Shown here one piece after another: positions 11,843-18,525 of a stretch of 20,966 nt of DNA. Each line of letters begins with the position of its first letter. Positions within the stretch are counted from its first letter, which is position 1. The stretch lies in NCBI GenBank assembly GCA_964016885.1, contig CAXHJY010001392.1:1-20966 (forward strand), in the 5' to 3' direction. The notes under the pieces were generated by a model. The model saw only the letters and a program-made list of their open reading frames with translations. It had not been told where the DNA came from and did not search any database. The stretch is from Eledone cirrhosa (lineage: Eukaryota). The position numbers and the translations under genes were made by a program.

Positions 11843-12112
11843 CAATATTAAATAAATGGAAACTATATTTATAAAACCATATTTATTTCATTATATATAT
11901 TTCAGGGATATCATATTAACAATATGCTATGCCTTCCTCAGACAAAATACAATATAAACAGTTTTATAGATAAATAGATTCGACATACCGTAACAACATC
12001 GACTTGCATTTGAAGAGGTTGATTTGGCAGCAAATATTTGTCGAGTGCTTTTATATCAGTTATAAATATTTACTAGTTGTAACCCAACAATTTTAAATAT
12101 AACTTTCCATGT
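11843..12112. mobile_element. Diverged, deleted copy of the 18112-18525 palindromic element
   Basis: 11850-11990 matches the reverse complement of ~18288-18425, and 12036-12112 matches 18450-18528. (TA)n on both sides. Confidence 0.8.
11884..11949 (-). ncRNA. Type I hammerhead ribozyme (family A)
   Basis: Minus strand: tattttgt CTGAGGA aggcatagcatatt-gtt-aatatgatatccct GAAA tatata TA atgaaata. 8-bp stem I, stem II with 12 of 14 positions paired, palindromic ATATATAT stem III. Confidence 0.85.
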
Positions 12113-12141
12113 ATATATATATATATATATATATATATATA

Positions 12142-12185
12142 TTCAGTCCAGAAGTAGCCGTCGAAACGGCTTGAGCTCAGCCGTC
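12142..12185 (+). mobile_element. Fragment of the 4442 element (hammerhead 3' half)
   Basis: ttcagtccagaagtagccgtc GAAA cggcttgagctcagccg TC matches 4490-4533. Confidence 0.75.
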
Positions 12186-12199
12186 TGTGTGCGCGGGTT

Positions 12200-12945
12200 T
12201 ATCTCACATGTATGTTATATATATATACACGTATGTATATATACGTATGTATATATACGTATGTATATATCTGCGTGTGTGTGTGTAGGTGTGTATATAT
12301 ATTTAAATATATGTATACGTTTATACACACAGATATACCTACACTCATACGTATATGTGTTTATATATATATATATATATATATATATATATATATATAT
12401 ATGTGTGTGTGTGTGTGTGTGTGTGTGTGTGTGTGTGTGTGTGTGTGTGTGTGTGTGTGTGTGTGTGTGTGTGTGTGTGTGTGTGTGTGTGTGTGTGTGT
12501 GTGTGTGTGTGTGTTATATATGTGAGTGTGCACGTGTACATCACACACACACACATACACATATATACATGTGTGTGTGTGTGTATATATATATTTAAAT
12601 ATATGTATACACTTATACACACAGATATACGTACACTCATACGTATATGTGTGTTTATATGTGTGTGTGTGTGTGTGTGTGTGCACGTGTACATCACACA
12701 CACATACACATATATACATGTGCGTGTGTGTGTGTAGGTGTGTATATATATATATATATGTGTGTGTGTGTATGTGTGTGTGTGTGTGTGTCTGTGTATT
12801 ATATATGTGAGTGTGCGTGTATACATCACACACCCACACATACACACATACACATGTGAGTGAGTGAGTGAGTGAGTGAGTGAGTGAGTGAGTGAGTGAG
12901 TGAGTGAGTGTGTGTGTGTGTTGTATGCATGTGTGTATGTATGTG
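12200..12945. repeat. Compound (TA)/(TG)/(GTGA)n microsatellites with a duplicated ~65-bp unit
   Basis: atttaaatatatgtatac...cactcatacgtatatgtgt occurs at ~12300 and ~12593. (GTGA)n at 12856-12910. Confidence 0.92.
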
Positions 12946-13104
12946 TCAGTTTATGTGTAAAGAATTAACAAGGAGAAGATCCCTACTATCACCTCTCGCC
13001 CCGTGTCCCCCAGTTTATAGCGACATAATTGCAGGGAGAGGTCTGATGGCCGTAGGGATAGGAGTGGTCAATTATAGTTAAATATAGGATATGGTGGTGC
13101 GCTG

Positions 13105-13850
13105 GGGTGGGTTGTTGTGGTGGTGGATGTGTGGTGATGGTGGTTGTGGTGATAGATGTGGTGGTGGTGGTGGTTGTTGTTGTGGAGGTGGTGGTGGTGG
13201 TGGTTGTTGTGGAGGTGGTGGTGTTGTGATAGATGATGTGTGGTGGTGGTTGTGGTGGTGATAGATGTGGTGGTGGTGGAGGTTGTTGTTGTGGAGGTGG
13301 TGGTGTTGTGATAGATGTTGTGATGGTGGGTGGTGGTTGTTGTTGTGGAGGTGGTGGTGCTGGTTGTTGTCGTGGAGGTGGTGGTGTTGTGATAGATGTT
13401 GTGGTGATGGTGGGTGGTGGTGTTGTTGTGATAGATGTTGTGGTGGTGGTGGTTGTGGTGGTGATAGATGTAGTGGTGGTGGTGGTTGTGGTGGTGGTGG
13501 TGGTTGTTGTGGAGGTGGTGGTGGTGGTGGTGGTGTGCTAGATGTTGTGGTGATGGTGGGTGGTGGTTGTTGTTGTGGAGGTGGTGGTGGTGGTGTTTGT
13601 TGTGGAGGTGGTGGTGTTGTGATAGATGTTGTGGTGATGGTGGGTGGTGGTGGTTGTTGTGGTGATAGATGTAGTGGTGGTGGTTGTGGTGGTGATAGAT
13701 GTAGTGGTGGTAGTTGTTGTTGTGGAGGTGGTGGTGGTTGTTGTTGTGGAGGTGGGGGTTGTTGTGGAGGTGGTGGTGTTCTGATAGATGTAGTGATGTT
13801 GGTGGTTGTTGTTGTGGAGGTGGTGGTGTTGTGATAGATGTTGTGATAGA
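13105..13850 (+). repeat. Degenerate (GGT/GTT)n repeat punctuated by gatagatg
   Basis: Recurrent gttgtggaggtggtggtgttgtgatagatg. Confidence 0.92.
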
Positions 13851-16739: not shown

Positions 16740-17575
16740 ACACACACATATATATATATATATATGTATATATGTGTGTGTGTGTGTGTGTGTGTATATA
16801 TAAATGTGTGTGTGTATATATATGTATATATATGTGTGTGTGTGTGTGTGTGTGAGTGTGTATATAAATGTGTGTGTGTCTATGTGTGTGTGTGTATATA
16901 TATATGTGTGTGTATATAGATATATATATGTGTGTGTCTGTGTATATATATATATATGTGTGTATATATATGTATATATACATGTGTGTGTGTGAGTGTG
17001 TGTATATATATATATGTATATATATGTGTGTGTGTGTGTGTGTGTGTGTGTGTGTGTGTGTGTGTGTGTGTGTGTGTGTGTGTGTGTGTGTGTGTGTGTG
17101 TGTGTGTGTGTGTGTGTGTGTGTATACATATATACAAAAATAACAAAACAAACAGCACAGTATATGGAAGAAATATATTAGTTTAACGCTTGAAATAGCA
17201 GGAAGAGAGTCTTAACTTTTAGATAGATAGATAGATAGATAGGTTTCTTTATTAGCCACAGGGGCATAAAAGAAGGGGTCAAATACAAAGGGGGAAGATA
17301 GATAGATAGATAGACATATATGTGTCTGTATGTCTATCTATCACTCAATTTATCAATCAAAATATTCATTTATACATGAATTTCTGTGTGTGTGTCTGTC
17401 TGATGTCTGTGTGTGTGTGTGTGTGTGTGTGTGTCTGATGTCTGTGTGTGTCTGTCTGATGTCTGTGTGTGTGTGTGTGTGTGTGTCTGTCTGTCTGTGT
17501 GTGTTTGTGTGTATGTGTGTTTGTGTGTATGTGCGTGTATGTACGTGTGTGTTTCCACTTGAGTGTGTGTGTGTC
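16740..17575. repeat. (TG)n, (TA)n, (GATA)n and (TGTC)n microsatellites
   Basis: Visible directly in the sequence. Confidence 0.92.
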
Positions 17576-17750
17576 TTTAAATCTCGTAACTTATGAATTC
17601 AACAAACAAATAGAGAGATTGATCAAATAAGAGTCAGACCAAAGAATGAGTTTTACAGTAGATTGGAAGCACTCAACGGGAAATAATTTTCTGGAGTTAT
17701 TAAAATTAAAATATAAGTATTAATAAAATAGATGTTCTTTTGATCAATTA

Positions 17751-17805
17751 CATTTTATTATACATATTTCAGAGGTACAACAGTACGTCCTCATCAGACA
17801 AAATA
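17751..17805 (-). ncRNA. Type I hammerhead ribozyme (family A), mirror copy
   Basis: Exact reverse complement of 17917-17971. Confidence 0.85.
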
Positions 17806-17916
17806 TAATGATACATGGCATACCCTGAGATGTTAAATGGTTAAGATTTAATCAAGCTAGATTACCTTGATTAAATCTTAACCATTTAATATCTCAGGGT
17901 ATGTCATGTATCATTA

Positions 17917-17971
17917 TATTTTGTCTGATGAGGACGTACTGTTGTACCTCTGAAATATGTATAATAAAATG
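17917..17971 (+). ncRNA. Type I hammerhead ribozyme (family A)
   Basis: tattttgt CTGATGA ggacgtac-tgtt-gtacctct GAAA tatgta TA ataaaatg. Stem I can be extended (atcatta/taattgat). Predicted cleavage after 17963. Confidence 0.85.
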
Positions 17972-18111
17972 TAATTGATCAAAAGAACATCTATTTTATT
18001 AATACTTATATTTTAATTTTAATATATATATATATATATATATATATATATACCAACGCCATCTATATCCACACACTCTCTCTCTCTCTCTCTCTAAATA
18101 TATATTTATAT

Positions 18112-18525
18112 ATGTAGAGGTTATATTTAATTTGTTGGGATACAAAAAGCAAAATATTTTTATAACTGATATAAAGCACTCAACAAATTATTGGAGTAAA
18201 AATACGATATTTTAATAAATGGAAACTATATTTATTTCATTATACATATTTCATGGAGCTTCCAACCGACATGGTCGCATTCTTTAAGGGTATGTCAATA
18301 TTTGTTTATAAAACTGATCTATATTATATTTTATCTGATGAAAGCGCACCATAATTTGCTTTGGTGTCCTTGAAATATCTATAATGAAATAAATATGGTT
18401 TTATAAATATAGTTTCCATTTATTAATATATCGTATATTTACTCCAAAAATTTGTTGAGTGCTTTATATCAGTTATAGAAATATTTGCTTGTTGTATTCC
18501 AACAAATTAAATATAACCTCTACAT
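18112..18525. mobile_element. Inverted-repeat element with hammerhead, embedded in (TA)n
   Basis: Imperfect arms at ~18112-18253 and ~18371-18525 (14-nt indel) around a ~117-nt spacer. Confidence 0.85.
18327..18391 (+). ncRNA. Type I hammerhead ribozyme (family A)
   Basis: tattttat CTGATGA aagcgcacca-taatttgctt-tggtgtcctt GAAA tatcta TA atgaaata. 8-bp stem I, stem II with 9 of 10 positions paired. Predicted cleavage after 18383. Confidence 0.85.

Follow-up and report, generated by a model that had tools for sequence, protein, structure and literature searches.

Penelope-like elements (PLEs) carry hammerhead ribozymes that have been described in several animal lineages. The minimal hammerheads (min-HHRs) in the pseudo-long terminal repeats (pLTRs) of these elements are of type I, have a palindromic helix III, are highly varied within one genome and occur as opposite-strand pairs (PMC4209133). 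PLEs of the Hydra clade are found as inverted, 5'-truncated copies at (TA)n targets with the hammerhead close to the 3' end (PMC8557442). In the Poseidon element PAc of the green anole, two start sites of the reverse transcriptase (RT) downstream of the hammerhead, used on uncleaved RNA, give rise to an optional tail (PMC11167929). PLE hammerheads cut slowly, that of the anole cuts only with its protein, and insertion in vitro is possible without cutting (PMC4209133, PMC11167929).

Here we analyse a stretch of 20,966 nt from Eledone cirrhosa (assembly GCA_964016885.1, contig CAXHJY010001392.1, positions 1 to 20,966 of the forward strand; the window), in which three insertions, A1, A2 and A3, carry hammerheads. 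Judged by sequence and predicted fold, these are real type I hammerhead motifs of a known kind, for which self-cleavage is predicted. We hold with moderate confidence the joint reading that A1-A3 are 3'-end (pLTR) stubs of an abundant PLE family, that their stem II is selected for its shape, and that a mismatch at the fourth pair of this stem is inherited and tolerated. The sequence, its covariation, the architecture and the variant states are observed here, and the PLE origin, cleavage as a dimer and near-neutrality of the mismatch are the parts of this reading that we infer.

Hammerhead copies and their stems

The core search of the window gave four matches, at 11892-11941(-) in A3, at 17759-17797(-) and 17925-17963(+) in A1, and at 18335-18383(+) in A2. 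A descriptor combining the core with a C·C at pair 4 and stem III likewise matched the window four times and had no match in any of 100 shuffles. Both matches in A1 belong to a single insertion, whose mirror arms are identical at 159 of 162 positions. This leaves three independent copies, and all three have the type I features (CUGANGA and GAAA core, A15.1-U16.1, H17). Hammerhead A1 (17913-17975, +) has stem I at 17913-17924/17964-17975, the core at 17925-17931, stem II at 17932-17951 with C10.4 at 17935 and C11.4 at 17948, GAAA at 17952-17955 and the stem III octamer at 17955-17962, with the predicted cut after A17963; in its mirror copy at 17759-17797(-), C10.4 is 17787 and C11.4 is 17774. 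Hammerhead A2 (18303-18409, +) has an extended stem I, the core at 18335-18341, stem II at 18342-18371 with C10.4 at 18345 and C11.4 at 18368, GAAA at 18372-18375 and a predicted cut after A18383. The minus-strand hammerhead A3 has the core CUGAGGA at 11935-11941, stem II at 11904-11934 with C10.4 at 11931 and C11.4 at 11907, and GAAA at 11900-11903; cutting is predicted after A11892. The folding z-scores were -2.4 for A1, -3.5 for A2 (none of 200 shuffles folded as well) and only -0.85 for A3. None of the five Rfam matches of A1 or the four of A2, at E up to 10, was a hammerhead family, and over the whole window Rfam gave repeat-driven matches only, among the matches listed (150 of 271).

The three stem II sequences differ, as a sequence-only reading of this DNA had noticed. 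Written as A1/A2/A3, they pair as GU/AU/AU (pair 1), GC/AU/GC (pair 2), AU/GC/GC (pair 3), CC/CC/CC (pair 4), GC/GU/AU (pair 5), UA/CG/UA (pair 6), AU/AU/AU (pair 7) and CG/CG/GA (pair 8). Compensatory changes are found at pairs 2, 3, 5 and 6, and among the three sequences 5 of the 17 predicted pairs have changed on both sides. The earlier statement that the stems all pair has to be softened for A3 pair 8, which is a G·A mismatch, and for A1 pair 1 and A2 pair 5, which are G·U. Between A2 and A3, differences affect 11 of 30 stem II sites and 8 of 105 flanking sites (Fisher p=0.0003), which amounts to a turnover about 5-fold that of the flanks; the two comparisons with A1 were not significant (p=0.12 and 0.30). 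A coding constraint on stem II was ruled out, since lengths of 20, 30 and 31 nt share no frame. The compensatory pairs and the A2/A3 turnover support the view, already proposed from the sequence, that stem II would be selected for shape and not for sequence.

Stem I spans 12 bp in A1; in A2 and A3 it is extended to about 26 bp and interrupted by one bulge and one internal loop. Its sequence (18303-18334/18384-18409) is conserved between A2 and A3 beyond pairing while stem II turns over, and it may be the real recognition element. Upstream of stem I, a GGGTATGTC-type motif is conserved in all three lineages at different spacing, at 17899-17907(+), 18288-18296(+) and 11982-11989(-). A search by eye found no pairing partner for this motif, which could be a promoter, splice or protein site.

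Stem III is formed by GAAA-UAUNUAUA and is, as described in the sequence-only reading, a minimal near-palindrome with an AUA triplet; its 8 nt form an exact palindrome in A3, include a tandem G·U in A1 and in A2 contain a C that is a rare base. As a monomer hairpin it would cost +4.7 kcal/mol, compared with intermolecular values of -3.2 (A3), -2.2 (A1) and, with the window base of A2, +1.4 kcal/mol. Since an 8-nt palindromic stem III cannot fold alone, these hammerheads should cut only as double hammerheads or with the protein of the element. Contigs from four runs (X1, X5, X6 and X7; four organisms) were compared with 17860-18530 at 80% likeness, whereby 8173, 66, 30 and 18 contigs were fitted in the four runs. 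The centre of loop 3 (18379) is A or G in about all of the depth in all four runs, and the octamer stays self-complementary in either state, which supports selection on a dimer-type stem III as the sequence-only reading had supposed.

That reading had also placed its hammerhead family in the interval 11884..18391 and had taken 18233-18287(-) as a decayed fourth copy with the same C-C. Hammerheads do lie at both ends of the interval, but the DNA between A3 and A1 (about 5.5 kb, ~12200-17600) is satellite and microsatellite DNA unrelated to them; within it, 13849-15826 is a strongly strand-biased, GT-rich minisatellite in which periods of 33, 68 and 284 nt are nested. The fourth copy had to be rejected, since 18233-18287(-) has neither an intact core nor the 5' strand of stem I, and the claimed stem is missing from its predicted fold. 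The A2 element does have an inverted left arm (18108-18256, -), but its 5' truncation reaches to about the 3' strand of stem II; what is left comprises GAAA, stem III, the tail and the 3' strand of stem I, the last with 14 nt deleted. In two other organisms, contigs continue from 18260 or 18273 into the A2 arm, colinear and on a single strand, and the 'atgCg' read as the 5' strand of the supposed stem is therefore the antisense of A2 upstream sequence. Loose contig ends carry related sequence back to about 18257.

The core and stem III pattern was also scanned for elsewhere. It occurred at 52 loci of viral contigs (29 distinct matches) and at 76 loci of metagenomes (56 distinct matches); by eye, none of the 29, all of which look like chance matches, and none of the 56 formed both stem I and stem II in the manner of the window copies. 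The scans thus served as a further control for chance and yielded no member of the family. The scan of prokaryote genomes gave no match. One metagenome match (L094, 708-753, -) has the core of a hammerhead; its stem II is paired and shows U·C at pair 4, its stem I is weak, and the match is probably either due to chance or a decayed PLE hammerhead. The window itself holds a hammerhead of a second family at 11521-11548(-), which has CUGACGA and the extra U. Its stem II of 6 bp is perfect and includes G10.1-C11.1, and its stem III is nearly palindromic. These are the features of the textbook PLE min-HHR; the stem I is weak, and the copy is probably decayed.

Inserted arms and a probable Penelope-like origin

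All three insertions consist of head-to-head, 5'-truncated inverted arms joined at the 5' end. The right arm of A1 (17863-18024, +) is a 5'-truncated stub with the short 3' end of the family and ends in (TA)n, with (AT)n at 18022-18052. Its left, mirror arm (17640-17859, -) has the same hammerhead and in addition a part of the 3' tail (17640-17697), which the right arm is without. The right arm of A2 (18258-18526, +) comprises the upstream region with GGGTATGTC, the hammerhead, the short end near 18438 and the optional tail at 18439-18526. In A3, the left arm (11843-11989, -) contains the hammerhead and ends in (TA)n at the short end, and the right arm (12031-12111, +), inverted relative to the left, consists of the tail only, is identical to the A2 tail at 84 of 93 positions and is followed by (TA)n at 12112-12142. 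The outer ends of the arms lie at two fixed points, the equivalent of 18438 or about 88 nt further (near 18526). Contigs ending in (TA)n at 18438 were found in X1 (57), X5 (2) and X7 (1), and after 18434 the depth drops 8- to 13-fold in all four runs. A rise in depth at 18389-18411 was considered as truncation at the cut site and was not used, since shared, self-complementary sequence explains it equally. The (TA)n runs adjoining the arms (11797-11842, 12112-12142, 18022-18052 and 18527-18598) agree with the targets of the Hydra clade; such targets are shared with other clades and are not diagnostic. Taken together, the inverted arms with their 5' truncation, the one-sided tail and the (TA)n flanks correspond to the layout of PLEs in PMC8557442, and the tail corresponds to the trace of two RT starts in PMC11167929.

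We propose that the RT/endonuclease of the element would prime cDNA at (TA)n from uncleaved RNA, and that the window copies, since they span the cut site, were copied from such RNA. With two sites at which the RT can start, about 55 and 143 nt beyond the cut site of the ribozyme, the products would be 5'-truncated pairs in head-to-head arrangement, in which one arm or both carry the tail. Master elements would be transcribed through tandem pLTRs, so that two stem III palindromes could pair into a double hammerhead, the cutting of which would probably be helped by the protein of the element, as in the anole. The copies in place are probably inert, as read-through RNA would bury the ribozyme in double strand: in the computed fold of a read-through of the A1 palindrome, all 39 ribozyme bases pair with the mirror arm.

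The same arms might instead belong to non-LTR retrozymes, or to a foldback element resembling a miniature inverted-repeat transposable element (MITE) that carries a hammerhead. Such an origin would suit the long inverted arms and the lack of coding sequence in the window, and retrozymes have been proposed to derive from PLE pLTRs (10.64898/2026.07.22.740005). A head-to-tail array of type I hammerhead units was, however, not found in the window, where the arms are divergent and inverted, and the combination of variable inner truncation with two fixed outer ends fits reverse transcription and not terminal inverted repeats. We therefore consider either origin very unlikely and retain that of PLE stubs.

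Other repeats of the window lie close to the insertions or share their layout. An 18-nt direct repeat (18053-18070/18599-18616) follows the (TA)n on both sides of the A2 element and is possibly a target or local duplication, and a pair of 53-nt dispersed repeats (10853-10905/11265-11317) adjoins (TA)n runs. A third family has the same layout, with a 116-nt near-perfect palindrome by (TA)n and a one-sided extension (4437-4553, 4566-4633); the extension recurs at 5395-5463, and a fragment lies at 12137-12185. The core scan of the window found no hammerhead core in this family (4437-4633, 5395-5463, 12137-12185), which likely represents more deeply truncated PLE ends. The window as a whole is of animal-type intergenic character and consists mostly of micro- and minisatellites. 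A repeat resembling short interspersed nuclear elements (SINEs) is present in dispersed and tandem (period 186) copies at 9282-9685, 19070-19230, 2380-2520 and 6245-6335; we take it to resemble the SINEs of octopus.

The mismatch at pair 4

At pair 4 of stem II, C10.4 faces C11.4 in each of the three independent copies, just as the sequence-only reading reported. The mismatch costs 5.8-6.7 kcal/mol by computation, and a C-G pair in its place would gain about 6 kcal/mol. Whether this state persists in a larger sample can be judged from the contigs of the four organisms. At a threshold of at least 3%, 40 of the 53 variant rows are listed; since these account for every C>A, C>G and C>T place counted in each run, our statements on cytosines are complete at 3%.

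In the A1 subfamily every run has A at C11.4 (17948), in some or all of its depth: 158058/362917 in X1 (40 contigs), 19.1/29.7 in X5, 62.1/130.7 in X6 and 11.2/11.2 in X7. This position is one of only five cytosines, of the 67 in the covered stretch, that vary by at least 3% in X1. At matching depth, 17951 changes from T to C, creating a canonical G10.1-C11.1 pair. These are the only two differences in the X7 contig over 17913-17995, and stem I therefore shows no change that accompanies C11.4>A. Further distal forms of stem II occur in loose ends and joint inserts, and C is kept at the pair-4 position where it is readable. Thus an X6 loose end with a CUGACGA core has C at 10.4 and a different distal stem, and joint inserts keep C at 11.4; for one X1 joint insert (18343 to 17942), which is ambiguous, 10.4 might be U.

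A strict C·C is therefore refuted by the C·A of the A1 subfamily in all four organisms, whereas a mismatch with a fixed 5' C10.4 persists across the family. Together with the loss of the fourth copy, this goes part of the way to the refutation that the sequence-only reading had itself named. The C·A subfamily disposes of much of the case for C·C itself as a required tertiary or protein contact. That idea could draw on the three window lineages and on the A2 subfamily, in which 18345 and 18368 are unchanged at the 3% level in any run; within a subfamily, however, the majority of the other cytosines of stem II show just as little variation, and the fourth copy once cited in its favour is invalid. 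We regard it as extremely unlikely. In the reading that we prefer, pair 4 would be a 1x1 internal loop inherited from the family ancestor and tolerated, with a 3' base that can be C or A; given this exchangeability, C·C itself would not be a required contact.

A weaker form of selection deserves more attention. The fixed C10.4 facing C or A might be a non-canonical pair or a flexible joint after the 3-bp proximal stem II, which either docks on the long stem I or is read by the element protein, replacing the loop 1-loop 2 contact. In keeping with this, the mismatch is found in all three window lineages and in every readable contig variant at the cost given above, although 9 of the 12 paired sites neighbouring pair 4 have changed. 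Precedents can be named as well: in canonical type I hammerheads of metazoans, the closure of a 4-bp helix II appears to consist of a C on the 5' side opposite an A on the 3' side (PMC4209133, machine-read from fig. S1), an A of stem-loop II makes a conserved Hoogsteen contact to stem I (PMC2553840), and the anole PLE hammerhead depends on protein for cutting (PMC11167929). Against it, only one substitution event is seen at pair 4, and two of the three possible changes would keep a mismatch by chance. The probability that both pair-4 sites stay invariant in all three lineages is about 0.06, and these lineages are related. Furthermore, no stem I change accompanies C11.4>A, which disfavours a Watson-Crick tertiary contact from 11.4 to stem I. 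Positions 1.1-1.8 of stem I, where the canonical contact requires a U without a partner, are paired, and the mismatch sits one pair nearer the core than that contact. Selection for the mismatch as such is, in our view, possible but doubtful.

Several observations nevertheless weigh against the combination of PLE stubs and a tolerated mismatch that we favour. C10.4 of both A1 and A2 is unchanged at the 3% threshold throughout the runs, and none of the four lists C-G at pair 4, despite the energy it would gain and the changes in its neighbours; selection for a mismatch would account for this pattern as well. None of the 75 frames scanned (of 80 non-simple frames of at least 35 aa in the window) has a Pfam match, and hence none to an RT or GIY-YIG domain, although the stubs are too short to hold such an open reading frame (ORF); PLE membership therefore rests on architecture. 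Finally, the depth of contigs in the four runs does not measure copy number, and few master copies gave rise to these contigs.

A more specific variant of the selected mismatch would make the family a subtype, in which the fixed C10.4 facing C or A at a distance of three pairs from the core, together with the sequence-conserved helix I of up to 26 bp, acts as a docking or protein-recognition switch of a protein-assisted, dimer-dependent ribozyme. We rate this as speculative and rather unlikely. If it were true, the family would amount to a mutational scan, made by nature, of the activation of hammerheads by PLE proteins, since its many copies, spread over at least four organisms, differ freely in the distal stem II. 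A site that stays unpaired while the rest of the helix changes would then point to what is recognised, and the natural C·C and C·A alleles would provide a ready-made comparison.

Comparison with described hammerheads and elements

The window copies resemble the min-HHRs of PMC4209133 in their long helix II, their small palindromic helix III, their opposite-strand pairs (100-700 bp apart in that account) and their predicted action as dimers. In the Drosophila willistoni row there, as machine-read, the palindrome appears to be 8 nt long and to contain an AUA triplet, as in the window copies. Unlike those min-HHRs, all three copies are without the extra nucleotide between 9 and 10.1, which is also missing in the shrimp row and one Saccoglossus row of the same source. 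They further have U11.1 (10.1/11.1 being G·U in A1 and A-U in A2 and A3) instead of G10.1-C11.1, although G-C is found in the common A1 variant, and a helix I of 12-26 bp instead of 4-5 bp. By eye, C·C at pair 4 occurs in none of the 56 representatives printed in PMC4209133, where the descriptor favours paired stems, and any mismatch at this pair occurs in two of them (C·A in S. purpuratus 1, U·U in C. sinensis 2).

With the Hydra-clade hammerheads of PMC8557442 the window copies share a U before GAAA (18 of 26 rows), an A at the cut site (12 of 26) and a palindromic stem III, and also the (TA)n targets, the position of the hammerhead near the 3' end and the inverted copies with 5' truncation. 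Stem III has 8 nt here and 9-10 nt in those rows, stem I of those rows has 3-11 bp, and by eye none of the 26 has C·C at pair 4. The octopus family Hydra-1_oBim carries a different hammerhead, and three motifs of 10-14 nt from our family were not found in the text of the supplement of PMC8557442. The likeness to PAc (PMC11167929) lies in the optional tail, the copies from uncleaved RNA and the AT-rich targets; the tail is about 88 nt here compared with the 30-40 bp given for Penelope, and the PAc ORF starts in stem II, whereas the three stem II lengths found here exclude one shared frame. The short palindromic stem III, the association with PLEs and cleavage as a dimer, which is predicted here, are common to the short-stem-III PLE hammerheads as reviewed in PMC6765202.

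In style, the hammerheads of the window are nearest to the Hydra-clade rows together with the D. willistoni row, and assignment to a clade would need the protein, which in the Hydra clade is marked by RWK, DKT and CxCX5C motifs. Dimer-cleaving, short-stem-III PLE hammerheads have reportedly been described by Lunse, Weinberg and Breaker, whose alignments may already include this family or its stem II mismatch. The term 'C-C mismatch' had no occurrence in the 20 papers listed of 107, which does not establish its absence from print. The class, the dimer logic and the variability of stem II are already known, and A1-A3 add a new member to the PLE hammerheads; as it stands, an abundant family with a modest structural quirk joins a known class.

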